Notes under the pieces: generated by a model
Databases searched by the model: none
What the model was told of the DNA's origin: nothing
The model's input: only the letters and a program-made list of their open reading frames with translations
Position numbers and translations under genes: made by a program
In this document: positions 9,989 through 62,408 of the stretch, piece by piece
Layout: the number at the start of each line of letters is the position of its first letter
Numbering within the stretch: the stretch's first letter is position 1
Assembly (NCBI GenBank): GCA_964414185.1
Contig: CAYPVK010000004.1
Span: 7,626 to 71,625 of the forward strand
Origin: an uncultured Lactobacillales bacterium
Lineage (GTDB): Bacteria; Pseudomonadota; Alphaproteobacteria; CAAHEQ01; UBA3637
Direction: 5' to 3'
Length of the DNA: 64,000 nucleotides

Positions 9989-10046
9989 CAGAAAAATTTC
10001 AAAAAGTCTCTTTCAATAAAATAAAGTCCTTTTGCAAAACATATTA

Positions 10047-33608: not shown

Positions 33609-34538
33609 ATGATTGATCCGAAACGTTTTTCATCAAAATATAAATCTTGCCCGAAAGAATGCCCCTTTCGGATTAAGATGGGTGTTTCATTTGAATTTTT
33701 GCCGTTTTATTGCGAATACTTTGAACAATACTTGGGAATTGGCGATGATTCGCTTCCGCTCAGATGCGCTGAATGCTTACAAAAAAAGGAAAATTACGTC
33801 CATGCCGGTTTGGCATTCATCAGCGGTTTCACCTCACCCAAAATTTCAATTGAGGATACAAAAGAAGCCTTTTTGGCTCAAAAACCACCCTTTCAAAAGA
33901 TGTACGTGGAAATCATCAAAAAAACGGGGCGCCAAATCGGCATTTATTTGGGGGAACCGGCAACGCCGCAAATTTTGTCGGGCAATTTAATCAAATCTTT
34001 GTATGATATTTGGAAAGGGTTGGATTCGCCCGAATTTCAAGAATTTAAAGATATACTTGAAAATGCGGACAGTCCGTTCGGCGATGTATTGTTAACGCGA
34101 TTGGAAAACACGTTGTTGCAAAATTTATTCCAAGCGTTGGACAAATCCGAACGTTCCGTTTTAAAAGGCGCGGTGGAATCTCAGAGTTTAAGTGCTTCTT
34201 TTTTTAAAGAGTTTCGTTCAATGCCCAAACACAGCAATTTGTTGAAAGATTTGCGCCGTGTGTTGAACGAATACGACCCGAAAATTCAAAAAGCTCAAGA
34301 AATTGACAAACAAAAACGTATGCAATCCGCTCGCATAAAACAAATGCAAGATCAAGTCAAAGCAAAACAACTGCAATTTCAGCAGCAGCAACAACAAAAG
34401 ATACAGCAACAACAAACAAAACAACAAAAAGTTCAGCCGATTATTCAAGATCAGGTAAAGGCAAAGCAAGCACAAGAAAAGCAAGATCAGGAAAAATTAC
34501 GGCAGCAACAAATGGTGCACCGCAATCGGAGCCGATAA
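33609..34538 (+). CDS. Hypothetical protein with Cys-rich N-terminus and Gln/Lys-rich C-terminus
   Basis: 309 aa. Cys pairs (CPKECP, CAEC) lie near the N-terminus. The C-terminal 70 aa are Q/K low complexity (QFQQQQQQKIQQQQTKQQK). Confidence 0.55.
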   Translation: MIDPKRFSSKYKSCPKECPFRIKMGVSFEFLPFYCEYFEQYLGIGDDSLPLRCAECLQKKENYVHAGLAFISGFTSPKISIEDTKEAFLAQKPPFQKMYVEIIKKTGRQIGIYLGEPATPQILSGNLIKSLYDIWKGLDSPEFQEFKDILENADSPFGDVLLTRLENTLLQNLFQALDKSERSVLKGAVESQSLSASFFKEFRSMPKHSNLLKDLRRVLNEYDPKIQKAQEIDKQKRMQSARIKQMQDQVKAKQLQFQQQQQQKIQQQQTKQQKVQPIIQDQVKAKQAQEKQDQEKLRQQQMVHRNRSR

Positions 34539-34704: not shown

Positions 34705-34830
34705 ATGAAAGTTCGTTGTTCACTCAAGTCCGCCAAAATGCGCGATAAAAACTGCAAAGTTGTTCGTCGCAAAGGACGCGTATACGTTATCAATAAAAAG
34801 AATCCTAAATTAAAGGCTCGTCAAGGTTAA
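34705..34830 (+). CDS. rpmJ: 50S ribosomal protein L36
   Basis: Below the ORF-track cutoff. GGGAAG RBS, then [41 protein letters not shown], a classic 41-aa L36. Confidence 0.9.
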
Positions 34831-35064: not shown

Positions 35065-35667
35065 ATGTTAAAACAACTAATCATAGGCGCTGCCGTTGCT
35101 GCCATTTCTTTATCGGTAAATGCTCAATCCCGCACCAATCCGATGGTAAAGGTTTTGCAACCCGACGGGACATATAAAACGGAAACTTTGGATCAAGCCG
35201 CCAAAGAAAAGCGCGAACAAATGATGCAACAAAAAGGGGCGCGCAAAAAAGAAATGCACGAAGAAAAAAAAGAACGGCGCGAAATGAAGAAAGAATGGGA
35301 AAAACATCAAAAAGATACGGATGAAAGTTACAGAAAAAAACATTGGTCCGACAATGACGATGATGATACGCGCGACGAATGGAAAAACAAGAAAAAAGAA
35401 TTAAAAGAAGAATACAAAGATAAAAAACGTGCCTTGAAATCTCAAATGCGTGAAGCTCAAACAAATACTCAAAATTCGATGGACCAAGCCGGTGTAGATG
35501 CACGAACGGCGGCTCGCAATGCGGCCGACGGCGGCAATCCGACTATGGGAACGCATATGGAAAATGCTTGGGACCAAACAAAATCCAGCTCGCGCCAAAT
35601 GGGGCGTGACATCAAAAAAGGGTATCAAGATACCAAAGATTATGTAAGTGATACTGTAAGCGATTAA
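35065..35667 (+). CDS. Secreted, highly charged (Lys/Glu/Asp-rich) protein
   Basis: GGGGGA RBS and signal peptide MLKQLIIGAAVAAISLSVNA. The mature part is dominated by K/E/D/R runs. Confidence 0.6.
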   Translation: MLKQLIIGAAVAAISLSVNAQSRTNPMVKVLQPDGTYKTETLDQAAKEKREQMMQQKGARKKEMHEEKKERREMKKEWEKHQKDTDESYRKKHWSDNDDDDTRDEWKNKKKELKEEYKDKKRALKSQMREAQTNTQNSMDQAGVDARTAARNAADGGNPTMGTHMENAWDQTKSSSRQMGRDIKKGYQDTKDYVSDTVSD

Positions 35668-35717: not shown

Positions 35718-35828
35718 GCGGTTATTTTAATTTATTTGAAAATTTAATATTGATTTTCATTGATATTTCGGAAATTTGTGCTAACCTGTCGGTTGCGAAA
35801 TTTTAATTTTTATCAAGGAGATTCCCCC

Positions 35829-36191
35829 ATGTATAAATTTATTTTGATGAGTGTCAGCATTCTTTCTTTAAGCGTTTGTGTCCAAGCACAAAATTTGTTG
35901 GACTCCGCCGTTTCATCCGTCAACAACGCTTCGGCTGCAGTATCCGAATCTTCGGCAAATATTTCCGCCAAAGCATCCACTGCCAAAAAAGAAGCGGCCG
36001 CAAAGAAAGCCGAAGCTCAAAAACAACGCGAAGAAGCTAAAAAAGAAAAAGCCGAAAAAAAAGCACAAGCCCGGCAAGAAAGGCAAGAAGCTAAGGCAAA
36101 ATTGAAACAAGCCAAAAAAGAAATGAAACAAAGCGCAAAAGATGCCCAAAAAAGCGTAACGCAAGCTTGGGGTTCTTTAACGGAACAATAA
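35829..36191 (+). CDS. Secreted Lys/Ala/Glu-rich coiled-coil-like protein
   Basis: Start taken at MYKFILMSVSILSLSVCVQA (signal peptide) behind AAGGAG. The mature part is AKKEAAAKKAEAQKQREEAKKEKAEKKAQARQ... Confidence 0.55.
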   Translation: MYKFILMSVSILSLSVCVQAQNLLDSAVSSVNNASAAVSESSANISAKASTAKKEAAAKKAEAQKQREEAKKEKAEKKAQARQERQEAKAKLKQAKKEMKQSAKDAQKSVTQAWGSLTEQ

Positions 36192-36352: not shown

Positions 36353-36991
36353 TTATTGACTGACCCACAAAACACGGCTCATCCACACCACTTCATTTGG
36401 CGAGACAATAATGTCCGGATGAACCGGATTGACGGATTTTAATTCGACCTGAAGTGCGGATTTACGAACAAGTTCTTTGACCATGACTTCACCGGTTATT
36501 AATTTGACGACAACTCGGTCGCCGCGACGGACTTCCGAATCGGGAGAAACGATTAATTTATCCCCGTCGCGATAGGCGGGTTCCATACTGTCGCCGGAAA
36601 CTTCCAACGCATAAACTCTTTTTGCCAAAATCGTCGGAAATTCAATACCGTCCCACGATTCAACGCCCAGCGGGTAACCGTCACTGTCAAAATATCCGTC
36701 CCGACCCGCTTTGGCAAAACCGAGCAAAGGTACGGTTTGGGATTTAGAGCTTGGGGTAGGTTCCCCCGCCAATTCCATAAATTCGAAAATCGTGGTATTG
36801 GTTGCCTGCAACAATTTATTCATACTTTCCGTGGATGGCCAACGTTTCCTTCCGTCTGCACCGAGTCGTTTCGATTTATTAAAACTTGTCGGATCCAAAC
36901 CGGATTTAACGGCCAGGGCAGATAATGACAACCCTTTCTTTTCCGCTAAATTTTCAATACCGTCCCATATTTCCGCATAAGTCAGGTGCAT
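36353..36991 (-). CDS. CI/LexA-like repressor with S24 peptidase domain
   Basis: 212 aa. The N-terminal HTH-like region is LAEKKGLSLSALAVKSGLDPTSFNKSKR. The C-terminal S24 domain has the Ser in VSGDSMEP and a Lys in VMVKEL. Confidence 0.8.
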   Translation of the reverse strand: MHLTYAEIWDGIENLAEKKGLSLSALAVKSGLDPTSFNKSKRLGADGRKRWPSTESMNKLLQATNTTIFEFMELAGEPTPSSKSQTVPLLGFAKAGRDGYFDSDGYPLGVESWDGIEFPTILAKRVYALEVSGDSMEPAYRDGDKLIVSPDSEVRRGDRVVVKLITGEVMVKELVRKSALQVELKSVNPVHPDIIVSPNEVVWMSRVLWVSQ

Positions 36992-37068
36992 TTCTTTGGT
37001 TTCCTCTCACTATCGTATTAGTTGTAATTATCTATACCACAAGATTTTTGTCTTGTCAATAGGATTAT

Positions 37069-37123
37069 TTTCTTATTTTGCTCTTGACAACTTATTTATT
37101 TTAGATTAGTTCTTATTTTGTTC
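37069..37123. promoter_or_regulatory. Direct-repeat operator candidates in the divergent promoter region; the second is an exact GTTC-N7-GTTC
   Basis: TTTCTTATTTTGCTC (37069-37083) and GTTCTTATTTTGTTC (37109-37123) are spaced 40 bp apart. TTGACA lies at 37084-37089 between them. Confidence 0.4.
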
Positions 37124-37145
37124 TTAATCCCGAAGGAGAAAAAAC

Positions 37146-37502
37146 ATGAAAAAAACATATTGCAATGCTTATGAAACCGAAGACACGACACCTTTTGATT
37201 CATCGGAAGAGGCGTGGTTTTGGTGTTGTTTGTGCGAATCGCTCGGGCATATCAGAGCTCATGGCGGCGACCGAAAAATTTCCAGGCCGTGCGAATCGTC
37301 CGATATCATCATTGCCGTAAAAAGGCTTGTACAATCCGGCAAAATAACGACGGAACAAGCCAAAATATTATTAAAATACGGCAAAGAGCAAACACCGCCC
37401 CACCCGCATTTCGGCGACAGTTTGCGTGTTTGTTCATTATGGAGAGAGGCATTGAATTTTTTGGGCGGCATTTTAAAACAAAAAGGCATTGTTGCATCCT
37501 GA
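37146..37502 (+). CDS. Hypothetical protein (early/regulatory position of the phage-like cluster)
   Basis: GAAGGAG RBS, 118 aa. No recognised motif. Confidence 0.45.
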   Translation: MKKTYCNAYETEDTTPFDSSEEAWFWCCLCESLGHIRAHGGDRKISRPCESSDIIIAVKRLVQSGKITTEQAKILLKYGKEQTPPHPHFGDSLRVCSLWREALNFLGGILKQKGIVAS

Positions 37503-37600
37503 AAAAAAAGAACGGCAACATTGTTTTTTAAGTGCGATAAATAAGCCGAATCGTATAATTCATCTAAAAAAAAAGAAAGAAAAAAACGGAAAGAATATAT

Positions 37601-37990
37601 ATGAAAAACAATACGTTAAAAGGATACAGATACCCATTCGCCATTGTTGGATTCGGAGGACAGCCCCGATGGTGGTGGATGAAATTTTTAAAAAAAGGAT
37701 TTTATCATTGCTTTGTTGTATTGGGTAACGGGTTTGATTGGATTTTGATTGATCCGTTGGCTCATTTTACCGATACGATTATCCTGAAAAACGTGAATAT
37801 CAAAGGATATTTAAGCGCTCAGGGCTATAAATTGGTCTTGACGACGCCCAATGTTCCGTCTTACTCCAAACCGCGGTTCAGACCTTATACATGCGTAGAA
37901 AGCGTCAAAAGGGTATTAGGAATAAAAAACCCTTATATTTTAACACCTTATCAATTATTTCAATTTTTAATAGAAAAAAAAGGAAAATAA
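37601..37990 (+). CDS. Hypothetical protein; possible permuted papain-like (His...Cys) fold
   Basis: 129 aa. YHCFVVLGNG and YTCVESVKRVLGI recall the LRAT/NlpC-like His-then-Cys arrangement. Weak. Confidence 0.4.
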   Translation: MKNNTLKGYRYPFAIVGFGGQPRWWWMKFLKKGFYHCFVVLGNGFDWILIDPLAHFTDTIILKNVNIKGYLSAQGYKLVLTTPNVPSYSKPRFRPYTCVESVKRVLGIKNPYILTPYQLFQFLIEKKGK

Positions 37991-38067
37991 TCCTTGACTT
38001 ATGAACAAAAGTATGCTATATTGAAACTCAATTAATAACCACAAGTGTATTTAAAAAAAAATCAACA

Positions 38068-38098
38068 ACCGCTCTGAAAAAATCAGGGCGGTTTTTTT
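38068..38098 (+). terminator. Intrinsic terminator separating the early ORFs from the structural module
   Basis: ACCGCTCTGA-aaaaa-TCAGGGCGGT followed by TTTTTTT. Confidence 0.75.
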
Positions 38099-38233
38099 CA
38101 ATCTATGGTTGAAACGTGAAATTTCTTAAAAACATACTATGGTATTCATTTAGTTTTCAGCCCGCAAAACAAGATTGGCGCAAGATTAAATGATTAAGAT
38201 TCTTGAAACTTAAATTAAGGAGAATTATTTTAA

Positions 38234-39817
38234 ATGTCTGACATCCAAAGCCTTTATGAACAATATAAAAAAGCCAACGCTAAACGTTCCCTGTGGGAAT
38301 CGACATGGCAAGAATGTTATGAATATGCCCTGCCCCAACGCGAAGGCGTTTTTTCTTCCAGCCAATCGAAAATCAATAACTTGTATGACGGCACGGCACC
38401 TGATTGTGTAGATCAGTTATCGGCCATCATGCTTTCGGAAATGACGCCTCCGTGGCTCAGATGGTTTCAATTGACGGCCGGCACGGATTTATCCGATGAA
38501 GAAGTTATGCAGATTACGCCGACGTTGGAAACCATTTCAAGTACGCTTCAAACGCAATTTGACCGTTCCAATTTTGCTTTGGAAGTCCACCAAGCCTATT
38601 TGGATTTGGTAACCGTCGGAACGGCATGTTTGTTGTTTGAAGAAGCCCCCGTCGGTTCAACATCCGCATTTCGGTTTTTATCCGTTCCTTTATCCGAAAT
38701 TTGTTTGGACGAAGGGCCGACGGGACGGTTGGATGTAACCTTTCGCAAATCGCAAACGGATTATTTAAGCTTAAAAAAACGTTTCCCGGGATTTGAATTG
38801 CCGGATAGGATGGTTAAAAAGCTTGTCGAAGACGAAGCAAAAATTTCTTTAATCGAAGCGGTCATCCCGCGTGTTAACGGGGGATATACATACACGGCAT
38901 TTTTGGAACCGAACAACCAGCATGATGCCCTGAACGGCGTTTCGGACCTCTTAAAAGAGGCTGTCTTTCAAACATCGCCGTTCATTTCTTTCCGCTGGTT
39001 AAAAGCACCGGGTGAAGTTTACGGGCGTTCGCCTGTCATGAAAACGCTGCCTGACATCAAAACCGCGAACAAGGTAGTGGAACTTATATTGAAGAATGCT
39101 TCAATTTCCGTGACGGGCATTTGGTTAGCCGAGGACGACGGCGTTTTAAATCCGTCAAATATCCAACTTGTACCCGGTGCCATCATTCCGAAAGCCGTCG
39201 GGTCCAAAGGTTTAACGCCTTTGGAAGCTCCCGGCAAATTCGACGTATCGCAATTAATGATTGATGATTTACGGTCACGTATTCGCCATGCTTTGTTGGG
39301 AGATAAACTGGGCAACGTCGAATCGCCCAAAATGACGGCAACGGAAGTTTTGGAACGGTCGAATGAAATGATGCGCATTTTAGGTGCCACCTACGGCCGG
39401 CTTCAAACCGAATTGCTGATGCCGTTGGTAGAAAGGGCATGCGCCATTTTAAGAAAACGCGGCGAAATTCCCGAAGTTTACGTCGACGGCAGATTGCTTA
39501 AAGTTGCCTATAAATCGACACGGGCGGAAGATCAGGCTCAAACAGATGCCGAAAATGCGCTTAAATGGCTTAATTGCGTCTTACAATTAGGGGAAACTGC
39601 GCTTGAAACCGTCGATATTAAAGCTTTTGTCAGATGGTTGGGGAGTAAGTTAAATGTTCCCAGTTCCGTCATGAATGATTTTGACAACCCGATCAATCTG
39701 TCAACCGTTTTGGGGCAGTCAAATACGCTTGACAAAGACGTTTCGAATCAAAGCGGACCAAACGGATTACCCCAAATGGCGGGCCAAACGAACTTGCTCA
39801 GCCGAGCGGGGGCATAA
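38234..39817 (+). CDS. Phage portal (head-to-tail connector) protein, podovirus type
   Basis: 527 aa and AAGGAG RBS. The N-terminal pattern YEQYKKANAKRSLWESTWQECYEYALPQRE resembles the T7 gp8-type connector N-terminus. It is the first gene of the structural module. Confidence 0.75.
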   Translation: MSDIQSLYEQYKKANAKRSLWESTWQECYEYALPQREGVFSSSQSKINNLYDGTAPDCVDQLSAIMLSEMTPPWLRWFQLTAGTDLSDEEVMQITPTLETISSTLQTQFDRSNFALEVHQAYLDLVTVGTACLLFEEAPVGSTSAFRFLSVPLSEICLDEGPTGRLDVTFRKSQTDYLSLKKRFPGFELPDRMVKKLVEDEAKISLIEAVIPRVNGGYTYTAFLEPNNQHDALNGVSDLLKEAVFQTSPFISFRWLKAPGEVYGRSPVMKTLPDIKTANKVVELILKNASISVTGIWLAEDDGVLNPSNIQLVPGAIIPKAVGSKGLTPLEAPGKFDVSQLMIDDLRSRIRHALLGDKLGNVESPKMTATEVLERSNEMMRILGATYGRLQTELLMPLVERACAILRKRGEIPEVYVDGRLLKVAYKSTRAEDQAQTDAENALKWLNCVLQLGETALETVDIKAFVRWLGSKLNVPSSVMNDFDNPINLSTVLGQSNTLDKDVSNQSGPNGLPQMAGQTNLLSRAGA

Positions 39818-39819
39818 AT

Positions 39820-40023
39820 ATGACAGATGCCGTCCAATTTACGCGCTTATTTTCCACTCAGGCGGGGATGAGCGTTTTAAAGTATTTAAAAGATTTAACG
39901 CATAACAGGGTTTTACCGGCTTCCTGCAGTGATGCGGAGCTGAGATTTTTGGAAGGTCAGAGATATCTTGTCAGCCAGATTGAAAATTTGATTAAACAAG
40001 GTAAACAAAACCCTTCGATTTAA
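39820..40023 (+). CDS. Small conserved phage protein next to portal
   Basis: 67 aa, coupled to the portal stop. From memory it resembles small ORFs found beside portals in BPP-1-like podoviruses. Unverified. Confidence 0.45.
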   Translation: MTDAVQFTRLFSTQAGMSVLKYLKDLTHNRVLPASCSDAELRFLEGQRYLVSQIENLIKQGKQNPSI

Positions 40024-40038
40024 CAAGGAGAAAAAAAT

Positions 40039-40869
40039 ATGCCTCAAAGCAAAGAAGTAAACAAAACGATAGAAGATGAAAATTTCGGCCGAATGCCTTC
40101 AAAGGGCATGTCGGGTCGTGCCGACACCAAAGGTTCAACAATTGATATGTCCGGCAATGCCGGCAATCGTTACGGCAATTATAAAGAAACGGAAGCCGGC
40201 AACGGTTTCGGATTGGAAACAAATGCCGGATTAACCATTCCGGAAAAATTCAAAGACCCCAAAACGGGTGAAATCAAAGTCGAAGAATTATTGAAATCTT
40301 ATTTGGCGCTTGAAAAAAAATTGTCCGAACGCGGCGTTTCACCGTCGGCCCGCGGCATGATGCCTGCCAATGCGGACGAATATGACATTCAATTAAAAAG
40401 CGATTTGATTACAATTGACCCGGAAATGAACGAACGTTTATTCGAATTGGGTTTTACAAACGAACAAGTTCAAGCCGTTTATGATTTGGCCGTTGAAAAA
40501 GTTTTGCCTTTGTTGCAGGAATTGTCGGCCGATTATAAAGCGGATCAGGAATTAGCCGCTTTGGAAAACGAATTCGGCGGTGCGGAACAATTCAACACGA
40601 TTGCCCGCCAAATTTCAGCATGGGGCGAAAAGAATTTAAATCCGGATATTTACGAAGCTTTGTGTTGCAGCAAAGACGGCATTTTGACGATGTACAAAAT
40701 GATGGGCGGCAATGCCGAACCCAGTTTGATGCAAGAATCTGCGGAACAATATCCGGCAGACACGGAAGAGACGTTGCGGGCATTGATGCGCGATCCGAGA
40801 TATTGGCGCAAAAATAATCCGTCAATTGTCAAACGCGTGGAAGAAGGTTTTAAACGCCTTTATAAATAA
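40039..40869 (+). CDS. Putative scaffolding protein
   Basis: 276 aa, acidic and helical. Lies between portal and capsid. Confidence 0.5.
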   Translation: MPQSKEVNKTIEDENFGRMPSKGMSGRADTKGSTIDMSGNAGNRYGNYKETEAGNGFGLETNAGLTIPEKFKDPKTGEIKVEELLKSYLALEKKLSERGVSPSARGMMPANADEYDIQLKSDLITIDPEMNERLFELGFTNEQVQAVYDLAVEKVLPLLQELSADYKADQELAALENEFGGAEQFNTIARQISAWGEKNLNPDIYEALCCSKDGILTMYKMMGGNAEPSLMQESAEQYPADTEETLRALMRDPRYWRKNNPSIVKRVEEGFKRLYK

Positions 40870-40991
40870 GGTTTAATTTTAAGGCAAACCTTTTTTAAAG
40901 GTCCTTAAAAAAAATAATGGCAAAACGACTATGTTTTACAACCGAATCTGTTTATTTTTAATAATAACTCATAAAATATAAGGAAAAAAAT

Positions 40992-41816
40992 ATGACTACA
41001 GGTATTGAAGAATCATTTATTAAACATTTTGAAGCAGACGTTCACAACGCCTATCAACAACAAGGATCAAAATTACAATCCACCGTGCGTAGCAAAAATA
41101 ACATCAAAGGTGCTTCAACGACTTTCCAAGTCATCGGGAAAGCAACGGCCGAAACAAAAGCAAGAAACTCTCAAATTTCAACATCGGCCGTAACGCATGA
41201 ACCCGTTGAATGCACATTGACCGATTATTATTCCGGCCAATGGGTCGATTCATTGGATGAACTCAAAGTCGGCCATGACGAAAGAAAAGCTTTGGCAACC
41301 GCCGGCGCTTATGCATTGGGGCGCAAAACGGACGAATTGATTATTAATGCTTTAAAAGGGGCAACCCAAACAGTCGGTTCGGGCGCTTTGACAAAAGACC
41401 GTATTTTGGAAGCATTCACATTGCTTAACAAAAATGATGTGCCCGATGATGGCGAAAGATACGCTTTGTTGTCTCCGGAAGCTTGGAATCAATTGATGGC
41501 CATTGAAGAATTTTCAAATGCTAATTATGTCGGAGAAGCTTATCCGTATTTGACGGGTTCCGAAACCAGAAAATGGATGGGCATTGTGTGGATTATGCAT
41601 ACGGGCTTGCCGGAAGATACGTCTAACAGCACGCATGATTGCTTTATCTATCACAAATCGGCCGTCGGGCATGCATCGGGGCAAGATATTAAAACCGATA
41701 TCACATGGCACGGCGATTATGCTGCCCACTTTGTCAACAACATGATGAGCCAAGGGGCTTGTTTGATTGATAAAAAAGGTGTCGTAAAATTGACGGTTTC
41801 CGATACGGCGGCGTAA
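40992..41816 (+). CDS. Putative major capsid protein
   Basis: 274 aa with AAGGAAA RBS. Positioned after the scaffold gene and followed by a strong terminator, as for highly expressed capsid genes. Confidence 0.65.
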   Translation: MTTGIEESFIKHFEADVHNAYQQQGSKLQSTVRSKNNIKGASTTFQVIGKATAETKARNSQISTSAVTHEPVECTLTDYYSGQWVDSLDELKVGHDERKALATAGAYALGRKTDELIINALKGATQTVGSGALTKDRILEAFTLLNKNDVPDDGERYALLSPEAWNQLMAIEEFSNANYVGEAYPYLTGSETRKWMGIVWIMHTGLPEDTSNSTHDCFIYHKSAVGHASGQDIKTDITWHGDYAAHFVNNMMSQGACLIDKKGVVKLTVSDTAA

Positions 41817-41850
41817 TCTTAACGTGAATTAACGTTTGTATCTCTTTAGG

Positions 41851-41880
41851 GGCGGAAGAAAATTCTTCCGCCTTTTTTTT
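41851..41880 (+). terminator. Strong intrinsic terminator/attenuator immediately after the capsid gene
   Basis: GGCGGAAG-aaaatt-CTTCCGCC followed by TTTTTTTT. Confidence 0.8.
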
Positions 41881-41904
41881 AATCTATATCAAAGGGGTTA
41901 TCCT

Positions 41905-42474
41905 ATGCCATTTACATCCATTGACCTTTGTTCACGCGCTTTGGTAAAAATCGGTGCCAAAAGTATTTCTTCATTTAACGAAGAAACGGCCGAATCCACG
42001 GTTGCCGAACAATTATATACGCCCGTTTTGGAAGGATTATTGTCAAGCTATCCGTGGAGATTTGCCCTTTCTCAACGTGAATTGGCGCGCTTGAACGACA
42101 CGCCGAGTGGCGATTATCGTTATGCTTTCGCTTTGCCGAACGATTTTTTAAGAGCTATTTCCGCCGGTCCGAAAGGGCACGGAAAAGGATTGGACTACCG
42201 TATTTGCGGCACTCAGTTGCATACGAACAGTGATAATGTTTTGCTGACGTATTTATATAAGCCGGGTGAAATGAATTTCCCGCCGTTTTTTTATCAGCTG
42301 GTTATTGCATGGTTAGCCGCGGAATTTTGTTTGCCTTTAACGGAAAGCACAACACGGACGGAACATTTGCGGGCGATTGCCGAAGATGAATTCAAACGCG
42401 CCAAGCTGATAGATTCGCAGCAGTCCGTCCCAAGTGCTTTCCAAGATTTTTCATTGATTGAGGTACGTTTATGA
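41905..42474 (+). CDS. Putative tail tubular protein A / adaptor (T7 gp11-like)
   Basis: Start moved to ATG 41905 (GGGG RBS), because the track start at 41836 lies inside the terminator. The N-terminus SIDLCSRALVKIGAKSISSFNEETAES...SYPWRFA recalls the gp11 N-terminal pattern. Confidence 0.5.
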   Translation: MPFTSIDLCSRALVKIGAKSISSFNEETAESTVAEQLYTPVLEGLLSSYPWRFALSQRELARLNDTPSGDYRYAFALPNDFLRAISAGPKGHGKGLDYRICGTQLHTNSDNVLLTYLYKPGEMNFPPFFYQLVIAWLAAEFCLPLTESTTRTEHLRAIAEDEFKRAKLIDSQQSVPSAFQDFSLIEVRL

Positions 42475-44390
42475 CAAGTTTATTTACAGCCAAAACAAAT
42501 TTTACGGCGGGCGAATTATCGCACGATTTGTTGGGGCGTGTTGATTTAAGTGCATATGCAAACGGAGCGATGGAACTGAAAAACGTTTTTATCGAACCGA
42601 CCGGCGGCGTACACCGCCGTCCGGGGCTTAAGTATGTTGATACGTTACAACAAACCGGCCGTCTGGTTAATTTTGAACTCAGCGCTTTGGAAAATTATCT
42701 TATTGTTTTGCATGCCGGTACGGCAGACATCTATAAAGACGGCGTTTTCCAAACCGAAATTGAAACGCCCTACACCGCCGAACAGCTTAAAACCATTCAT
42801 TGGAGTCAAAGTGCCGATGCCTTGTTTTTAACACACCAAGACGTTTGCCCGCAGAAAATCGAAAAAAAAGACGGCATTTGGACAATATCGGATTTTGAAT
42901 TTTTGGTTGAAGACGAATGTATTTTGCAACCTTATCATAAATTTTGCAGTGCCGACACGACAATTTCAAGTTCCGGCATAACGGGAACGGTTACGTTGAA
43001 AACTTCCAAAGATTTTTTCACAACCGCCCATGTCGGGACTCAGATTAAAATCGCCGACGGGTATGTCGTTATTAATTCGATAACAAATGCAAAAACCGCA
43101 GCGGCAACCGTTAAGAAAAAGTTGGTATCGGATGCCGATGACGGTGTTTCTTTGGAAGCGACACGTTCATTTTGGGAACCCGTTTTTACCGAAGAGCGCG
43201 GCTGGCCCGTTTGTGTGGCGTTTTATCAATCGCGGTTGATTTTCGGGGGCAGCAAAAAATTGCCAAACACATTATGGTTCAGCCAAACATCCGATTTGAC
43301 AAACTTTGAATTGGGCGACGGATATGATGCGGAAGGCATATCGTTTTCGATTTTGTCGGACCAATCCAACATTATTTGCGCTTTATTTGCCGGACGGCAT
43401 TTGCAAGTATTTACGACATCCGCCGAATGGATGGTATCGGGCGATCCTTTAACGCCGACAAATATTCAATTAAAACGCCAAACTCAGGTGGGTTCTCCCG
43501 CCCGTTGGTATGTGCCGCCCATCGGCATTGACGGAGCAACGATATTTCCGTCGGCAAACGGGCGCGAAATCCGCGAATTCTTATTCGCAGATATTGAACA
43601 AGCCTATCAGGCAACCGATTTGTCTTTGTTGGCGTCACATTTAATCAATGACCCGCAAGACCAAGCGTATGATAAGCATAACCGTCAAGCTTACATTTTA
43701 ATGAGCAACGGCCATGTATGCGTATTGTGCTCTTTCCGTTCGGAAGATATTCAAAGTTGGACCGAATTGACAACGCAAGGTGATTTTATTTCCGTATGCA
43801 TGTCCGGGCAAAAAGCTTATTTCATTACCAAACGTGAAGAAACTTATTATTTAGAATGTTTCGATGATGATATCGGGACGGATTTAAGTTGCCTGTTAAC
43901 GGCCGAAACGCCCACCGATACGTTTGAAGTGCCGGAATATTTAAAAGGAAAGACGGTAAAAATTGTCGCTGACGATATTGTTTTGCCCGATCAAGAAGTG
44001 ACGGATGGGCAAATCATATTGCCCTTCAATGCTTCCAAGGTTGAAGTGGGTTTAGGTTTTGAGCATATCATATCGCCTTTGCCGCCATCCGTCGGCGCGA
44101 CAAATTCCGTAGCACCCGTATCGGCATGCCGATTGGTCAAAGCTTGTTTCAGAGTTATTAATACAAATACGTTGGAAATTGACACGGGCAACGGCATACG
44201 GCAGGAAGTTTCATACCCGTTGGACAGCTATAAGTTTGATTCGCTTATCCAAAAGCAAACGTCCGATATTGTCGTGCGTGCTTTGGGATGGGTCAGAGCG
44301 CCCGACAAACCTTTATGGCGCATTATCGGCGAAACGCCGAAACCGTTTAAATTGGTCAGTGTAACACAAGATTTAAAAATAGGAGGATAA
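42471..44390 (+). CDS. Putative tail tubular protein B / nozzle (T7 gp12-like)
   Basis: 639 aa, overlapping the gp11-like stop. The N-terminus FTAGELSHDLLGRVDLSAYANGAMELKNVFIEPTGGVHRRPGLKYV recalls gp12-type N-termini. Confidence 0.5.
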   Translation: MTSLFTAKTNFTAGELSHDLLGRVDLSAYANGAMELKNVFIEPTGGVHRRPGLKYVDTLQQTGRLVNFELSALENYLIVLHAGTADIYKDGVFQTEIETPYTAEQLKTIHWSQSADALFLTHQDVCPQKIEKKDGIWTISDFEFLVEDECILQPYHKFCSADTTISSSGITGTVTLKTSKDFFTTAHVGTQIKIADGYVVINSITNAKTAAATVKKKLVSDADDGVSLEATRSFWEPVFTEERGWPVCVAFYQSRLIFGGSKKLPNTLWFSQTSDLTNFELGDGYDAEGISFSILSDQSNIICALFAGRHLQVFTTSAEWMVSGDPLTPTNIQLKRQTQVGSPARWYVPPIGIDGATIFPSANGREIREFLFADIEQAYQATDLSLLASHLINDPQDQAYDKHNRQAYILMSNGHVCVLCSFRSEDIQSWTELTTQGDFISVCMSGQKAYFITKREETYYLECFDDDIGTDLSCLLTAETPTDTFEVPEYLKGKTVKIVADDIVLPDQEVTDGQIILPFNASKVEVGLGFEHIISPLPPSVGATNSVAPVSACRLVKACFRVINTNTLEIDTGNGIRQEVSYPLDSYKFDSLIQKQTSDIVVRALGWVRAPDKPLWRIIGETPKPFKLVSVTQDLKIGG

Positions 44391-44391
44391 C

Positions 44392-44856
44392 ATGCACGTA
44401 GCAGCAGCTACAGCGATTGCAACGGTCGCCGCATCTGTTTTTTATTCTAAAAAAAATTCGGATGCACAAAAAAAACAAATAAAAAAAGCCAACGCGGCTA
44501 CGCAAAAGCAATATGAATTAAACCGCCAACAAACTCAATTGACTTTGGCGGAAACCCAGCGAAAAAACCGTAATTTGTTAGCCAAGCAACAATCGGCCTA
44601 TAAAGCTAAATTGGGGGCAAGCGGCATGAGTTCAAAAAGCGGTTCGGGGGAAGTGGTTTTAAACACGATGCAAAAAGAACATGACGCGGAAGACAAATAT
44701 TTGGTCGATCAGGCAAATATTTCGTTGGAAGCGTTGTTAAACAGCGTCAACCGGACAAAATCGCGCAATTTATTGTCACTTCAAACACTGGAAAACAATG
44801 AACGCAACAATATCATCAGCGGTATAAATTCTTTCGGGCGCAGCGTTATCAAATAG
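44392..44856 (+). CDS. Small virion-associated protein candidate (N-terminal hydrophobic helix plus Gln/Lys-rich coiled coil)
   Basis: 154 aa, starting 1 nt after the upstream stop. Confidence 0.4.
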   Translation: MHVAAATAIATVAASVFYSKKNSDAQKKQIKKANAATQKQYELNRQQTQLTLAETQRKNRNLLAKQQSAYKAKLGASGMSSKSGSGEVVLNTMQKEHDAEDKYLVDQANISLEALLNSVNRTKSRNLLSLQTLENNERNNIISGINSFGRSVIK

Positions 44857-44866
44857 GAGGATACTC

Positions 44867-45160
44867 ATGAGCGATAAAGATTTAAAGCTCATCGATATTC
44901 TATCCCCTTATTTGGAAAAGTCACTTAAAAGTTACGAAGAGTTCATCTCTCAGGAACATCCTCGGGACCCGAAAGGCTTTACGGCATACCATAATGCCTG
45001 CAAAGCGGTTTTATCCCATGTGGCATTATTATTAAGATTAATCGAACACAATGATGTTGATGCGGCAACGCCGGAGGCCGAACCGGGTTTATTGGCTTTA
45101 ATCAGACAGGCACAAGATGCCGATGAAATTCAGGAGGATACGGATGAAGACTTTGAGTAA
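44867..45160 (+). CDS. Hypothetical acidic protein; candidate small terminase by position
   Basis: 97 aa with GGAGGA RBS. Lies directly upstream of, and overlapping, the large terminase gene. Positional inference only. Confidence 0.3.
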   Translation: MSDKDLKLIDILSPYLEKSLKSYEEFISQEHPRDPKGFTAYHNACKAVLSHVALLLRLIEHNDVDAATPEAEPGLLALIRQAQDADEIQEDTDEDFE

Positions 45161-46598
45161 GCATGCAAATAACGAAGCTTTGCGGTTAAATTTAAGCGAA
45201 TTTGTTTGGATTTGGACGCATTTGCAAAATTTGACGGTACCGCGCCACCATGTACGCATGTGCCGTTTTTTATCTGAATTATGGCAAAACAAGGATGATA
45301 AAAACGGTTTGTTAATGGCTTTTCGCAACTCGGGCAAATCCACAATTGTCGGGTTATTTTGCGCATATGTTTTATGGCAAAATCCCGACACGCGGATTTT
45401 GATTTTATCGGCCGATCACGAATTGGCAAAAAAAATGGTACGCAACATTAAACGCATTATTGAAAAGCACCCACTGACAAAAGAATTGAAACCGGCCAAA
45501 AAAGACCAATGGGCATCGGATTGTTTTACCGTCAATCGGCGCGCCAATTTGCGTGACCCATCGGTTTTGGCACGCGGTTTAATGGCTAATATCACGGGAT
45601 GCCGAGCGGATTTGATTATTTGCGATGATGTGGAAGTTCCCAAATCTTGCGATACAAGTGTCAAGCGGCGCGATTTGCGGACAAAATTATCCGAATTGGA
45701 TTATATTTTGACGCCGGGCGGTATGATGCTGTATGTCGGCACGCCACACACAGTCGATACGATATACAATACCGAATCGGACGGTTTTTTGGCCGGATGG
45801 GAAAGTTTGAAAATTCCGATTTTGACAGCGGCGGGAAAATCAAATTGGCCGGGCAGATTTTCCGAAGCCAAGATTGCCGCAATCAAAAAACGGTCAGGAC
45901 CGAATAAATTTGCAAGTCAAATGATGCTTGAAGCCGTTCGGTTGCAAGACAGCCGTTTGGACGGGCAAAAAATAGCTTTGTACAAAGATGAATTGGATTA
46001 TACGCAAGCCAACCAAAGTGCCGTTTTAAAAATCGGTTCAAATCGACTGGTATCGGTTTCCGCTTGGTGGGATCCGGCTTTCGGCGCGATAGACAAAGGT
46101 GACGACAGTGTCGTAGCGTGTGTATTTACGGACGAAAAAGGCATGTATTATTTACATGATATTTTGTATTTGCGCGTGCCGGATTCCGAAGAATCGGCTT
46201 CGTTCCAATGTCGGGAAGTTGCCGATTTTGTCAACCGAAATTATTTGCCGTCGATAAATTTGGAAACAAACGGCATCGGAAAATTTTTGCCGGCATTGTT
46301 AAGAGCAGAATTGGCGCGCAATCATATTGCGTGTGCCGTCATTGAACAAACGTCCCGCCAAAATAAAGCTATGCGGATTTTATCGGCATTCGATGCGCTG
46401 TTAATGAACGGCGGCCTTAAAGCCCATGTGCGTATAAAACAAACGCCGTTTTTTGACCAAATGCAAGATTGGGTGCCGAACGGCAAAACAAAAGACGATG
46501 CGCTTGATGCCGTTGCGGGATGTTTGCTGAAAGAACCCGTTCGGTTGCCGCAATACATACACAGATATACAAATAAGAAAAGAGAATGGAGATTTTAA
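45144..46598 (+). CDS. Terminase large subunit
   Basis: Start taken at ATG 45144 after AGGAGGA. Walker A-like FRNSGKSTIVG and Walker B-like ADLIICDDVE, with a C-terminal nuclease-like region. Confidence 0.78.
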   Translation: MKTLSKHANNEALRLNLSEFVWIWTHLQNLTVPRHHVRMCRFLSELWQNKDDKNGLLMAFRNSGKSTIVGLFCAYVLWQNPDTRILILSADHELAKKMVRNIKRIIEKHPLTKELKPAKKDQWASDCFTVNRRANLRDPSVLARGLMANITGCRADLIICDDVEVPKSCDTSVKRRDLRTKLSELDYILTPGGMMLYVGTPHTVDTIYNTESDGFLAGWESLKIPILTAAGKSNWPGRFSEAKIAAIKKRSGPNKFASQMMLEAVRLQDSRLDGQKIALYKDELDYTQANQSAVLKIGSNRLVSVSAWWDPAFGAIDKGDDSVVACVFTDEKGMYYLHDILYLRVPDSEESASFQCREVADFVNRNYLPSINLETNGIGKFLPALLRAELARNHIACAVIEQTSRQNKAMRILSAFDALLMNGGLKAHVRIKQTPFFDQMQDWVPNGKTKDDALDAVAGCLLKEPVRLPQYIHRYTNKKREWRF

Positions 46599-46599
46599 A

Positions 46600-47010
46600 A
46601 TGAGCGAAGAAGTGACAATTTTTGCCAAGACTATTTTCGGCGAAGCGCACGCCCAAAAACTGTCAGCGATGGAAGCCGTTGCCAACGTTGTCATGAATCG
46701 GGTGCGCCATGCGCAAAAAGTCGGCAGCTATTGGTGGGGAATGACGCCCAAAGAAGTGTGTTTAAAACCGTTGCAATTCAAATGTTGGCAATATACCGAT
46801 TATGCCAATCCCGCCAAAGACGAAGTTTTAAAAAACAATAAAGTTTATAAAATCTGCGAACGGTTGGCACGGCGTGCCGTCAGCGGATTTTTAAAGGACA
46901 ATACCAAAGGCGCAACGCATTACCACCGTTTGGAAGAACACCCCGCTTGGGCGGCCAAAGCGGTTCCGTGCGCTCAAATCGGAGGGTTTTTATTTTATGC
47001 GCACGTCTAA
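46600..47010 (+). CDS. SleB/Hydrolase_2-type cell-wall hydrolase (endolysin candidate)
   Basis: 136 aa. AKTIFGEAHAQKLSAMEAVANVVMNRV...ATHYH matches the SleB-like hydrolase pattern. Confidence 0.78.
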   Translation: MSEEVTIFAKTIFGEAHAQKLSAMEAVANVVMNRVRHAQKVGSYWWGMTPKEVCLKPLQFKCWQYTDYANPAKDEVLKNNKVYKICERLARRAVSGFLKDNTKGATHYHRLEEHPAWAAKAVPCAQIGGFLFYAHV

Positions 47011-47332
47011 AAAAAGAGAAGAAAATTTATCGGAATTTTCATTGGAAATGGGCAAATTAATGGCTCAAGTCGACGGTTTGCAAAAACAATTGGCCGATAT
47101 CAAAAAAGATGTCAGTTCAACAAAAACGCAAATTGCCAACGTACATACCGAATTACTTAATTTTATGGGTACCGTACAAAAGAAAACCGTTTGTCAGGCA
47201 ATGCATGACAAATTAAACAAAGAATTTATCATGCGCCGCGAAATAGCACCCATTAAAGCGATTTTAAACGTTATTGCCGTTACAACCGTTACGGCCATTT
47301 GCATTGCCGTCATGGATTTAATTTTAAAATAG
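46997..47332 (+). CDS. Coiled-coil protein with C-terminal TM anchor (lysis accessory, spanin- or holin-like candidate)
   Basis: 111 aa, overlapping the lysin stop. The C-terminal helix is ILNVIAVTTVTAICIAVMDLIL. Confidence 0.4.
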   Translation: MRTSKKREENLSEFSLEMGKLMAQVDGLQKQLADIKKDVSSTKTQIANVHTELLNFMGTVQKKTVCQAMHDKLNKEFIMRREIAPIKAILNVIAVTTVTAICIAVMDLILK

Positions 47333-47341
47333 GAGGATAAT

Positions 47342-47533
47342 ATGATTGATTTTATAATAACACATATTGAAGATTTGCTGATTGCGATGAGTTCAATTGT
47401 TGCCGGTGCCAGTGTGTTGGCGGCTTTAACGCCGACGAAAAAAGACGATTTGTTTTTTAAATACGTTAAAAACACATTGGATTTTTTGGCTTTAAATATC
47501 GGCAATGCCAAACCGGCGTCCAAAACGGCTTAA
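47342..47533 (+). CDS. Small single-TM protein (holin-like candidate)
   Basis: 63 aa with GGAGGA RBS. TM helix LLIAMSSIVAGASVLAALTP followed by TKKDD. Confidence 0.4.
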   Translation: MIDFIITHIEDLLIAMSSIVAGASVLAALTPTKKDDLFFKYVKNTLDFLALNIGNAKPASKTA

Positions 47534-47683: not shown

Positions 47684-48301
47684 ATGAAAGATAAAAATTC
47701 CGTTTTTAAACGGCATCGCGAAACGATGAAAGATCGTTTAAAACGATTGGTTTTAAGTTTGTTGTGGTATGGCCCTTTGTTGGCGGGCGCCGTGTGGGGA
47801 TCTTGGTATATCAAAAAGTTATTGCCCGCTTACGTTTCAAATTATTTCGGGTTGCCGGCGGCTCAATCCATATCCATGGCCAATATCAAACGTGCCGAAT
47901 TTTTAAAGGATAATTTATCTTTTCCAATGGGATTGCCGCAATATTTAACGGCGCAAATGTCCGCCATAGCCGCCACAACCAAAGCCGGCACATTGGAAAT
48001 TGCCACGAATGCTGCCGTAACCTTGATAAACGGCTTATTAAGCATTTTTGTTGTTATCTTGGCAATTTACATTATTTTACGATTTTTAAAATATTATAAG
48101 ACACGTGCGGCCGAAGACAGAATCGCCCGCCAAGTCGCCAATCGTTTAATCCCGATGTTGGAAGAAATCAACAACAACATATTGGCGTTGGGGGAAAAAC
48201 AAAACAACAACGCATTGCCTGTCAAAGAATTTGTCTTGTCCGAAATTCATGAAGAAAAGGGAAAATCACCCCAATCGCAATTTGTCGAAAACGGCAAATA
48301 A
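47684..48301 (+). CDS. Hypothetical membrane protein
   Basis: 205 aa with two or three hydrophobic segments. No recognised motif. Confidence 0.5.
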   Translation: MKDKNSVFKRHRETMKDRLKRLVLSLLWYGPLLAGAVWGSWYIKKLLPAYVSNYFGLPAAQSISMANIKRAEFLKDNLSFPMGLPQYLTAQMSAIAATTKAGTLEIATNAAVTLINGLLSIFVVILAIYIILRFLKYYKTRAAEDRIARQVANRLIPMLEEINNNILALGEKQNNNALPVKEFVLSEIHEEKGKSPQSQFVENGK

Positions 48302-50289: not shown

Positions 50290-51381
50290 TTATTCATCTG
50301 TTTGATTCATCATTGCGGCGGATACGACTTCCGCCAAATCGGTTGTGATTTTGGATTGACGCGTACGCCGATAGAGCTTTTGCATGGATTTGAGCATTTC
50401 TTCGGCATTGCGCGTTGCATTATCCATTGCCATCAAACGCGCGGCATTGTCCGCCACTTCGGTTTCAAGCAACACGCGGCAAATATAAAACACCATATAT
50501 TGCGGCAACATTTGTTCCAACAATTCCAAATCGGACAAATCATAATCATATTCGTCGGGCGAACGGGTGGATTGTTCCAAAATGCCTTTGTCAATAGCCC
50601 CGAGCGGCGCCAACATATCGGCACCCCCGAAAGCCGTCAAAAAGGAAGATTGGTGAATATTGTATTTTTTGTGTCCCAGCACATCACGACTGACATAATC
50701 GGCATCGTTTGTATTGATTAAAAATTGCCACGGATTGTTTTTTTCAAACAATTTATTCGGGATTACCTGTTCAATCGTCGGTTTTTGCGACACAACAGAA
50801 TGGAATTCATTATAAACGAACAAGCACACGTCAAATTGGCCATGGTCAAATGCTTCAACCAATGTTGCGGCAATACGTTCCGCATCCAAATAAGTATCAT
50901 CACCTGTGTGCAATTTGCGTTTGGCCGACCGTATTTGCCATTCGGGATGGTTGCGTTTTAAAACGTCGGCGCCGCGCGTGCCGAAACAAAACAAAGTAAC
51001 TTTTTTGTCTTGTTCATGCAAATATTTAACCACTTCTTCGGTTTTTTGGACAACGGTGCTTGTAGATGAACCGCTGAGACCGTCATCGGACGTAATGACC
51101 ACAACGACATAGCGTTTATCTTTTCCGTTGCCTTTCAAAAGCGGTGGCATCGGCAAAATTTCGCTTGACCCTTGCAAAGCCAATTGTTCTTGGCGAAAAG
51201 AAGCCGACCGAATCAAGCGGCGAATCATACGGTATATTTCAATCGCGTATTTGCCGGTGCGCAAAAACGTTTCATGTTTTTTCTTCAACCTTGAAATCGC
51301 AACAACCTTCATCGACGCGGTTACTTGGTGCGTCGATTCGATAGTTTTTATACGGTCGCCGATTTTCTTAAGTGAACTCAT
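50290..51381 (-). CDS. atpG: F0F1 ATP synthase subunit gamma (enlarged, 363 aa)
   Basis: The N-terminus [31 protein letters not shown] and C-terminus [16 protein letters not shown] are gamma signatures. It has about 60-70 extra residues in the middle. Confidence 0.9.
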
Positions 51382-53222: not shown

Positions 53223-53382
53223 TATCAATAATCCTTGTGAAAGATAAAAATATGCTTCTTATGTACCACAACATAGGATTTTTTGCAAGGCATTTTTGTG
53301 TTTTTTTCACCCGTAAAAAAGTTTAAATAAACCGCCCTTCAAAAAAAAGAGCGGTTTATAAAAACAAGCCCGTCTTGATTGC

Positions 53383-62375: not shown

Positions 62376-62408
62376 TGAAGGAACCCACTGGGATGACGGT
62401 AATGGCAA
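62376..62408 (+). repeat. Left 33-bp direct repeat bracketing the AT-rich island
   Basis: tgaaggaacccactgggatgacggtaatggcaa compared with tgaaggaacccactagagtgatggtaatggcaa at 63920-63952 (29/33 identical). Both copies contain an RBS-like GAAGGA and the start of an ORF (M-T/M-V-M-A). Confidence 0.8.

Follow-up and report, generated by a model that had tools for sequence, protein, structure and literature searches.

To our knowledge, only a handful of gene transfer agent (GTA) lineages are known, and all of the well-studied alphaproteobacterial ones derive from long-tailed phages. RcGTA and CcGTA (Rhodogtaviriformidae) and BaGTA (Bartogtaviriformidae) are encoded by clusters of 11–15 kb that are fixed in the chromosome and comprise genes for head, tail, packaging and lysis but none for replication or integration; these clusters pass vertically within the host lineage under purifying selection and are linked to host stress regulation. 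RcGTA delivers its DNA to the periplasm and relies on competence proteins of the recipient. Q21-like antiterminators control the three studied alphaproteobacterial GTAs (PMC11150451; bioRxiv 10.1101/2024.11.20.624540): late expression of CcGTA depends on GafZ-mediated antitermination (PMC11150451), and in BaGTA the Q21-like BrrG acts on a promoter and an attenuating leader (bioRxiv 10.1101/2024.11.20.624540). In 2026 a podovirus-like GTA-like element, FpGTA, was reported from Faecalibacterium prausnitzii and called the first of that morphology (PMC12946183). Here we describe a cluster of about 11 kb at positions 36353–47533 of a 64-kb stretch of contig CAYPVK010000004.1 (assembly GCA_964414185.1; hereafter the window), from an uncultured bacterium placed in the Alphaproteobacteria. 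Judging from its genes, it is quite probably a domesticated particle-forming element. We also favor, with somewhat less assurance, the more specific interpretation of a podovirus-derived candidate GTA (viriform) from a large family whose members have become permanent parts of the chromosome in Rhodospirillales-like Alphaproteobacteria. That the element really transfers DNA is a more tentative proposition.

We searched the proteins of the window with the hidden Markov model (HMM) libraries of Pfam, PHROG and NCBIfam, and the DNA of the cluster with Rfam. The cluster encodes head, short-tail, packaging and lysis genes within the chromosome (Table 1). Its succession of portal, scaffold, capsid, gp11 and gp12 genes is that of a T7-like structural module. 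All structural matches fell into T7-type families, and no prohead protease, tape measure or tail tube was found among the cluster proteins with PHROG and Pfam. RcGTA-type elements, by contrast, are built from HK97-siphovirus structural genes with a tape measure, whereas the structural genes here are of T7/HTVC010P podovirus type (PF12236, PF05396, PF19821, gp11/gp12). The Rfam scan of the cluster gave no match near any gathering score. Genes overlap by 4–17 nt at gp11/gp12, u97/terL and lysin/u111 and otherwise abut, and a strong ribosome-binding site (RBS), AATAGGAGGATAA, recurs before them. Protein lengths agree with those of family members and none is truncated; gp12 homologues, for example, span 621–645 aa, and the portal (527 aa) and the capsid protein (274 aa, as in the phage Hodr discussed below) are of full size.

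Several of the individual assignments are provisional. The protein after gp12 is a gp14-like internal virion protein candidate whose matches lie below the cut-offs, and it is conserved in 36 loci. The protein u97 keeps its place immediately upstream of terL, overlapping it, and the pair stays intact in both gene orders described below; purely by its size and position, u97 is a candidate small terminase subunit (TerS). The last two genes, u111 and u63, are holin or spanin candidates; they are conserved across the gut and rumen clade and mark the end of the conserved cluster. We took ATG 41905 as the start of gp11, as also called on the public contig; an alternative start, TTG 41836, is probably not used. 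An initial annotation of this DNA, made by a model from the letters alone, had listed the genes in this order and described them as intact, tightly coupled and preceded by good RBSs, all of which the HMM searches, overlaps and lengths bear out. The first open reading frame (ORF) of the range that it gave is now assigned to an S24 repressor, and its statement that internal-core genes are missing holds for the large ones, but the small gp14-like candidate is present.

The cluster lies between ordinary chromosomal genes. Upstream are lnt and rpmJ (34705–34827), downstream are atpC, atpD, atpG and atpA, and GC content is 0.430 within the cluster against 0.425 for the rest of the window. Pfam scans that took in every other large ORF of the 64-kb window found only cellular functions, with no integrase, replication protein, phage-type single-subunit RNA polymerase, fibre or large internal virion protein. 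The cluster itself contains no gp15/gp16-sized ORF, a tblastn search of the window with the N-terminal fibre domain of relatives gave no match (E>2), and a repeat search found no att-like direct repeats flanking the cluster. The only repeat it turned up, a 10-bp identity, TTAATCCCGA, at 37124 and 48146, was considered as an att site and judged to be chance, within coding sequence. A 2034-aa ORF (15919–22023, plus strand), considered as a gp16-like protein, has no PHROG or Pfam match and was rejected as such; it lies downstream of an autotransporter beta-domain protein (10937–11902) and a CorA transporter. Thus, within the 64-kb window, both the chromosomal setting between the rpmJ region and the atp operon and the absence of integrase, replication genes, gp15/gp16-sized genes and att repeats stand as first described, and the cluster has no means of its own excision, replication or integration.

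We next examined how widely the cluster is distributed. Exact copies of the portal sequence come only from contigs of gut-type metagenomes. Relatives of the portal numbered in the thousands in a protein search; the best 120 are 55–93% identical and reside on contigs as long as 647 kb, and the few of these contigs that name a source are labelled as Alphaproteobacteria or Pseudomonadota metagenome-assembled genomes (MAGs). A scan of one genome per species gave at least 592 motif-confirmed portal matches. The family genomes examined here are the best 80 of these (portal identity 54–93%), comprising gut and rumen Alphaproteobacteria MAGs and a second group of Magnetospirillum, Paramagnetospirillum, Phaeospirillum, Caenispirillum, Terasakiella, Telmatospirillum and Haematospirillum. 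Versions of Magnetospirillum-like or gut-alphaproteobacterial type also turned up in MAGs labelled Limiplasma, Bacteroidota, Solirubrobacterales and Lactobacillaceae (L043, L049, L068, L072), probably as mis-binned contigs or in mislabelled bins.

Mapping by tblastn, which for the high-GC loci took the place of ORF calls marred by antisense artefacts, distinguished three versions of the cluster. The compact order of the window is found in a gut and rumen clade (L003–L025, L069). A second compact order (repressor, u118, u129, TerS-like, TerL, lysin, portal ... gp12, gp14) occurs in other gut lineages, including CAG:495, and a slightly longer version of about 13–15 kb in environmental Rhodospirillales. 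Among 51 loci with enough upstream sequence, the regulators stand upstream of the portal almost throughout (S24 repressor 48/51, u118 49/51, u129 49/51). The flanks are conserved within clades as well: in the window's clade the repressor adjoins lnt and has atp genes close by, in relatives with portal identities as low as 66%, and class-I lysS adjoins it in six environmental lineages. In relative L164, for which precomputed gene calls were available, the cluster lies between lnt and genes for a helix-turn-helix (HTH) protein, a tRNA methyltransferase and aspS, with no mobility genes beside it. Loci of the Magnetospirillum/Phaeospirillum type carry two cellular-looking genes in antisense between scaffold and capsid, for an ODP metallo-beta-lactamase and an MCP-signalling-domain protein (L040 12518–14028, minus strand; likewise L026, L034, L035, L039, L055, L068 and L079), an arrangement hard to reconcile with a packaged phage genome.

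Viral collections gave a similar picture. IMG/VR contained 267 relatives; the contigs of the 80 loci kept from it are mostly 4–26 kb long, with one of 94 kb, and none has the size of a phage genome (~35–40 kb). One GenBank entry, MT838907.1 (L170; 5084 bp, “UNVERIFIED: Bacteriophage sp.”, human faeces, Mexico), is a fragment of a family member (portal 57%, capsid 59% identity). A search for an empty site by exact atpC look-up in near-identical strains returned only short contigs, on which the arrangement was unchanged.

Selection on the cluster was estimated from the ratio of nonsynonymous to synonymous divergence (dN/dS) between the window and its closest species-level relative, L003. The ratio is 0.03–0.14 for every cluster gene, with values of 0.036 for the repressor, 0.037 for u118, 0.054 for the gp14-like gene and 0.03–0.07 for terminase, portal, nozzle and adaptor. 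Synonymous divergence (dS) is 0.54–1.27 in all cluster genes except u118, for which 64% of the length gave 2.56. In the flanks, lnt, u309, u200, atpC and atpD have dN/dS of 0.04–0.10 and dS of 0.34–1.26, indicating that the cluster matches its surroundings in age and in strength of constraint. Toward more distant relatives dS is saturated, with dN/dS still at most 0.26. The GC content of the core genes follows that of the flanks across 47 loci ranging from 30 to 70% GC (r=0.985). Portal identity also tracks the identity of neighboring host genes pairwise (lnt rho 0.90 over 28 pairs, c39 0.86, c34 0.78, lysS 0.63), in pairs that are non-independent and whose p-values are therefore overstated.

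The cluster is thus inherited vertically with its host and kept by purifying selection. Selection, dS, GC tracking and identity correlations reject simple decay, against which the initial annotation had already argued and for which it had named synteny and dN/dS across relatives as the check; flanks are conserved within clades, and every gene is under constraint. The same observations argue against a frequently moving element. Together with synteny and the lack of mobility and replication genes, they point to a domesticated, chromosomally fixed element. That annotation had left a choice between such an element and a helper-dependent satellite; the former is supported and the latter is not, given the lack of integrase, replication gene and att site and the co-divergence with the host.

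The nearest bona fide phage is Pelagibacter phage EXVC031P “Hodr”, of 34.2 kb. Identity to Hodr is 35% for the portal, 41% for the capsid protein (274 aa in both), 52% for the Bbp19-like protein, 35% for gp11, 36% for gp12 and 37% for the lysin; the large terminase subunit (TerL) has no detectable similarity to Hodr TerL. Podophages of the Hodr/HTVC010P type (~32–35 kb) thus have homologous portal, Bbp19-like, scaffold, capsid, gp11, gp12 and lysin genes, and the Hodr order terL-portal-...-capsid-gp11-gp12-gp14 is that of the second gut arrangement. Unlike the element, Hodr is autonomous and has about 50 further genes. After its gp12 come ORFs of 159, 783, 1247 and 349 aa, at the positions of gp14, gp15, gp16 and the fibre; counterparts of the 783-aa and 1247-aa proteins and of the fibre-sized ORF are lacking here. 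The T7 late region (Autographiviridae) shares the order portal, scaffold, capsid, gp11, gp12, gp14, (fibre), TerS, TerL and a terminator after the capsid gene. In contrast to T7, the element has no phage RNA polymerase, DNA polymerase, primase/helicase, gp15 or gp16, is integrated and repressor-controlled, and is predicted to be transcribed by host polymerase from sigma-70-type promoters. The T7-like affinity proposed at first therefore applies to the gene order, while the closest real phages are HTVC010P/Hodr-type pelagiphages and not T7 proper.

In no locus with ORFs listed downstream of gp12 did we find a gp15/gp16-sized gene there, and the large ejection proteins are lacking throughout the family. 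The fibre has a different history. Environmental relatives encode one after gp12/gp14. Its N-terminal domain, about 160 aa long and related to that of T7 gp17 (PF03906; 27.6 bits in L064), is conserved, and its distal parts vary. The fibre gene is absent from the cluster in both gut arrangements, indicating that its loss is derived and specific to gut lineages. The tail fibre, initially reported as missing, is accordingly missing from the gut lineages but retained inside the cluster of environmental relatives.

We then turned to the regulatory DNA. The S24 repressor gene is transcribed divergently from the other cluster genes. Its product has an HTH-like N-terminus, Ala-Gly at residues 95–96 and a GDSM serine motif at residue 133, and is predicted to be CI-like and autocleavable. 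We considered whether it could be the host LexA, but its TIGR00498 score (37.8 bits against a cut-off of 111) marks it as a phage-type repressor instead. GTTC-N7-GTTC is taken as the general alphaproteobacterial SOS box. An exact copy lies upstream of u118 in 42 of 106 distinct loci, where 0.13 were expected from shuffles (maximum 2), at 32–45 nt from the u118 start in 39 loci and at 61–83 nt in 3. The same motif is listed as the SOS box of Caulobacter (PMC9578287, Table 1). The window as a whole holds 5 copies against 2.1 expected and is not enriched, so the significance of the box rests on its positional conservation across loci. Host LexA probably binds this predicted SOS box at the early promoter. 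A divergent CI-like repressor, a short early operon and an SOS box in the early promoter are also common to the dual LexA/CI control of prophages, whereas control of the RcGTA/CcGTA and BaGTA group runs through CtrA/GafA or RogA.

The two early genes encode conserved proteins. The product of u118 is a 4-helix protein with invariant Trp and Cys residues (AF2 pLDDT 85). Its only recurring fold matches in PDB were six chains of phage 21 Q, at TM 0.41–0.42 and E>2, and are not significant (Foldseek); a Foldseek search of BFVD gave no significant match either. The u129 protein is alpha/beta, with invariant H36-C37 and T97-C98 (AF2 pLDDT 88), and its model has no PDB fold match in Foldseek. Profiles of both proteins matched no PDB sequence. 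The u129 profile matches 2339 clusters at 50% identity (E<=1e-3), a family without a Pfam model.

Directly behind these genes, three bases past the u129 stop codon (37990), begins a late promoter that is followed by a conserved leader box and an intrinsic terminator. The three recur together in 48 non-redundant loci, in leaders ranging in G+C from 0.22 to about 0.7 and in both gene orders; in the second order they precede TerS/TerL. The layout of 37601–38098, with u129, a strong late promoter, a short leader with an intrinsic terminator and then the late genes, is that of a Q-type module. It shares with lambdoid Q/pR'/tR' a promoter behind the last early gene and a short terminated leader before the whole late operon, a likeness from which we infer that u118 and/or u129 may be processive antiterminators; u118 in particular is a candidate Q-like antiterminator or activator. 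In contrast to Q-lambda, Q21 and Q82, the early proteins lack significant sequence or fold similarity (best TM ~0.41), and, unlike in the lambdoid Q system, the conserved leader box is no obvious −10-like pause element. The layout also parallels that of known alphaproteobacterial GTAs, in which a small regulator that the element itself encodes lets transcription pass the terminators ahead of late genes (GafZ, GafA, BrrG; PMC11150451, bioRxiv 10.1101/2024.11.20.624540). A further intrinsic terminator follows the capsid gene. Its hairpin is present in all 24 gut/rumen-clade entries listed (L001, the contig carrying the window's own proteins, and L003–L025), with differing stem sequences, and is not demonstrable family-wide (31/122 against 20 control windows).

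These features suggest the following mechanism. In the silent state the early promoter would be blocked, probably by host LexA at the SOS box and by the S24 repressor. DNA damage (RecA*) would remove LexA and/or the S24 repressor, and u118 and u129 would be made. The late promoter would normally yield only a leader RNA of about 70 nt that ends at the intrinsic terminator; u118 and/or u129 might then make RNA polymerase termination-resistant at the leader box, as Q does at lambda pR'/tR', so that it passes both the leader terminator and the post-capsid terminator and enters the 9.5-kb late operon. Procapsids would assemble, the terminase fill them, adaptor and nozzle close them, and lysin and membrane proteins release them. 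Since the element lacks replication and excision functions and the locus is about one-third of the Hodr genome with capsid proteins of identical length, the packaged DNA would be mainly chromosomal, taken at random, as in a GTA, or in one direction starting at a site within the cluster. As gp15/gp16 are lacking, DNA may well be delivered no further than the periplasm, as in RcGTA. In its fullest form, the proposal is of an ancient, widespread podovirus-derived GTA family in hundreds of species of Rhodospirillales-like Alphaproteobacteria, among them cultivable Magnetospirillum, Phaeospirillum and Caenispirillum as well as uncultured lineages of the human and ruminant gut. It would have been domesticated independently of RcGTA and BaGTA, would be switched on by DNA damage by way of LexA/CI and of a novel antiterminator with a conserved leader as its target, and would deliver host DNA without an ejectosome; we put it forward tentatively, as a possibility somewhat short of even.

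Other explanations share part of this evidence. The cluster could be an exapted cryptic prophage with a non-transfer role, such as SOS-triggered altruistic lysis that releases DNA or public goods, the formation of empty or non-adsorbing capsids, or superinfection exclusion. Its structural genes would then be conserved because assembly is needed for that role, the SOS wiring and lysis cassette would fit a damage-induced lysis programme, and the loss of the gut fibre, with the family-wide lack of gp15/gp16-type proteins, makes delivery doubtful. However, the strong constraint on terminase, portal, nozzle and adaptor (dN/dS 0.03–0.07) is hard to explain unless DNA-filled, closed particles matter, and a conserved anchor with a variable distal part gives the environmental fibres a receptor-binding signature. 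We consider this exaptation unlikely. It is less likely still that the element is a helper-dependent podovirus-type satellite, comparable to a capsid-forming phage-inducible chromosomal island, with its own head and nozzle and borrowed fibres, ejection proteins and replication. The missing functions are indeed those that a Hodr-type helper carries, and 11 kb is a typical satellite size, but there is no integrase, excisionase, primase/replicase or att repeat, the location is fixed beside host genes whose dS and divergence it shares, and neither IMG/VR nor the phage collection holds a helper-like full phage above 41% identity. Induction moreover appears wired to the host SOS response through an S24 repressor of the SOS-cleavable type, and not to a helper antirepressor.

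The limited view of the genome (64 kb), together with a CI-like repressor and lysis cassette typical of functional prophages, would also suit an intact temperate podophage of which only the late region is in view, its modules for early functions, replication and integration being split off or located beyond the window. This is very improbable, considering that cellular genes stand on both sides, here and in relatives with 10 kb of flank, that the repressor is only two small genes away from the structural genes in 48–49 of 51 loci, and that no family member lies on a phage-genome-sized contig. A recently inactivated prophage remnant, heading for decay and intact-looking by chance, would account for the many phage functions that are lacking, but hardly for genes that are all intact, for purifying selection across lineages with saturated synonymous sites, or for a cluster and regulatory DNA conserved in genomes from ~30% to 70% G+C; we give it almost no credence.

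Several points also weigh against the domesticated GTA-like element that we prefer. Known GTAs package and transfer host DNA, whereas particle production, packaging and transfer by this element are predicted from sequence, and fibre, ejection or replication functions could lie elsewhere in the genome. Lacking both fibre and ejection proteins, the version in the gut lineages might have no means of delivering DNA at all. Neither u118 nor u129 significantly resembles an antiterminator in sequence or fold, and it is just as conceivable that the SOS box serves the S24 repressor of the element as its operator. A GC content close to that of the host is to some extent also a trait of temperate phages, which may have LexA boxes as well, and the identity correlations with host genes come from the non-independent pairs mentioned above. 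Genomic position differs between the major clades, which may leave room for ancient horizontal moves. Finally, an origin of MT838907.1 in a purified fraction of virus particles would mean that DNA of the element itself may enter capsids; otherwise, the entry is a cellular contig misfiled as phage.

Table 1. Genes and regulatory features of the cluster, in order of position in the window
Feature	Position	Strand	Evidence or remarks
S24/CI-like repressor, 212 aa	36353–36991	−	PF00717 5.9e-22; phrog_4 “transcriptional repressor” 3.6e-30
Divergent control region, 154 bp	36992–37145		Between repressor and u118
Conserved TGTCAATAGGA box	37054–37064		
Early promoter (predicted)	37084–37089 (−35); 37107–37112 (−10)		−35 TTGACA; −10 TAGTTC, 17 nt later
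SOS box (predicted) GTTCTTATTTTGTTC	37109–37123		Exact GTTC-N7-GTTC overlapping early −10
RBS for u118	37135–37138		GGAG
u118	37146–37502	+	Conserved early gene; no family above threshold in Pfam, PHROG, NCBIfam
u129	37601–37990	+	Conserved early gene, alpha/beta; no family match in Pfam, PHROG, NCBIfam
Late promoter (predicted)	37994–38022	+	TTGACT-17-TATATT, extended TG; best plus-strand promoter match of region
Conserved leader box	38028–38035 (TCAATTAA); 38040–38052 (CACAAGTGTATTT)	+	
Intrinsic terminator (predicted)	38067–38093 (hairpin); 38092–38098 (T-run)	+	11-bp stem; upstream of portal
Portal (head-tail connector), 527 aa	38234–39817	+	PF12236 3.8e-123
Bbp19-like small protein	39820–40023	+	PF25181 1.4e-10
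T7-type scaffolding protein	40039–40869	+	PF05396 4.2e-11
Major capsid protein, 274 aa	40992–41816	+	PF19821 2.3e-71; phrog_3437 4.8e-74
Intrinsic terminator (predicted) after capsid gene	41848–41875	+	12-bp stem and T-run
gp11-like tail adaptor, 189 aa	41905–42474	+	phrog_394 6.6e-44
gp12-like tail nozzle, 639 aa	42471–44390	+	phrog_376 2.7e-119; PF25675 weak
gp14-like internal virion protein candidate, 154 aa	44392–44856	+	PF24072 2.6e-4 and phrog_418 1.3e-3, both below cut-off
u97, TerS candidate, 97 aa	44867–45160	+	Acidic C-terminus; phrog_31793, a family annotated as of unknown function
TerL, 484 aa	45144–46598	+	phrog_38 1.2e-87; weak T7 terminase RNaseH-like domain
SleB-type cell-wall hydrolase (endolysin; Hydrolase_2)	46600–47010	+	PF07486 2.9e-16
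u111	46997–47332	+	Coiled coil and C-terminal transmembrane segment (hydropathy)
u63	47342–47533	+	N-terminal transmembrane segment (hydropathy); phrog_9685 1e-12

Further observations concern the surroundings of the cluster. Between its end and atpC lies a gene for a 205-aa membrane protein (47684–48301, plus strand) that occurs only in the closest relatives (42–72% identity) and is absent at that position in L164; given this restriction, it is probably no part of the element. Between lnt and the repressor, around rpmJ, are three Lys/Glu/Gln-rich low-complexity ORFs without a family match (33609–34538, 35065–35667 and 35760–36191), two of them with signal-peptide-like N-termini. All three are matched in L003, and in L005 and L164 lnt directly adjoins the repressor. 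In the atp operon, ATP synthase alpha (51378–53228, minus strand; 616 aa) is fused N-terminally to a C-terminal fragment of delta/OSCP (PF00213 at residues 19–87, then the alpha domains), a fusion also present in L164 (605 aa), and ATP synthase gamma (50290–51381, minus strand) is unusually long at 363 aa against a 285-position profile. At the far end of the window, a DUF3800 protein (63073–63783, minus strand) lies where GC falls to 0.28–0.34 (profile 62001–64000), and a second low-GC patch (10001–11000) adjoins an HTH_3 protein; both patches may be islands of foreign DNA unrelated to the cluster.

In the literature on antitermination, GTAs, podoviruses, T7-like prophages and Magnetospirillum, searched with subscription journals largely outside reach, we found no paper describing this cluster, and the accessible part of a prophage survey of Magnetospirillum gryphiswaldense describes no such cluster. 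The initial annotation had held that a podovirus-derived GTA would be new. FpGTA weakens that claim (PMC12946183), but a T7/HTVC010P-type lineage in Alphaproteobacteria with SOS and antitermination wiring appears undescribed. Compared by description only, FpGTA is likewise a GTA-like element of a gut bacterium with an inferred podovirus-like morphology; it differs in its host phylum, in having two loci with baseplate, fibre and receptor-binding genes, and in that packaging of host DNA has been shown by sequencing. The SOS box at the early promoter, the promoter, leader and terminator ahead of the structural genes, and the T7-type fibre of environmental relatives are additions of the present analysis.

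If the proposed interpretation is true, the family would be a third, independently domesticated lineage, built from a short-tailed T7/HTVC010P-type virion, and would show that phages are turned into transfer particles repeatedly and from different virion designs. Such an element would provide a natural minimal podovirus particle of about 14 genes with no ejectosome, and two large uncharacterised families, u118 and u129, would gain a function together with a conserved leader element. Close relatives occur in cultivable, tractable bacteria (Magnetospirillum, Phaeospirillum; also Caenispirillum), which makes the idea directly testable. Gene transfer would in this case be linked directly to the SOS response, and the element would offer a possible route of DNA exchange in the poorly known Alphaproteobacteria of the gut.

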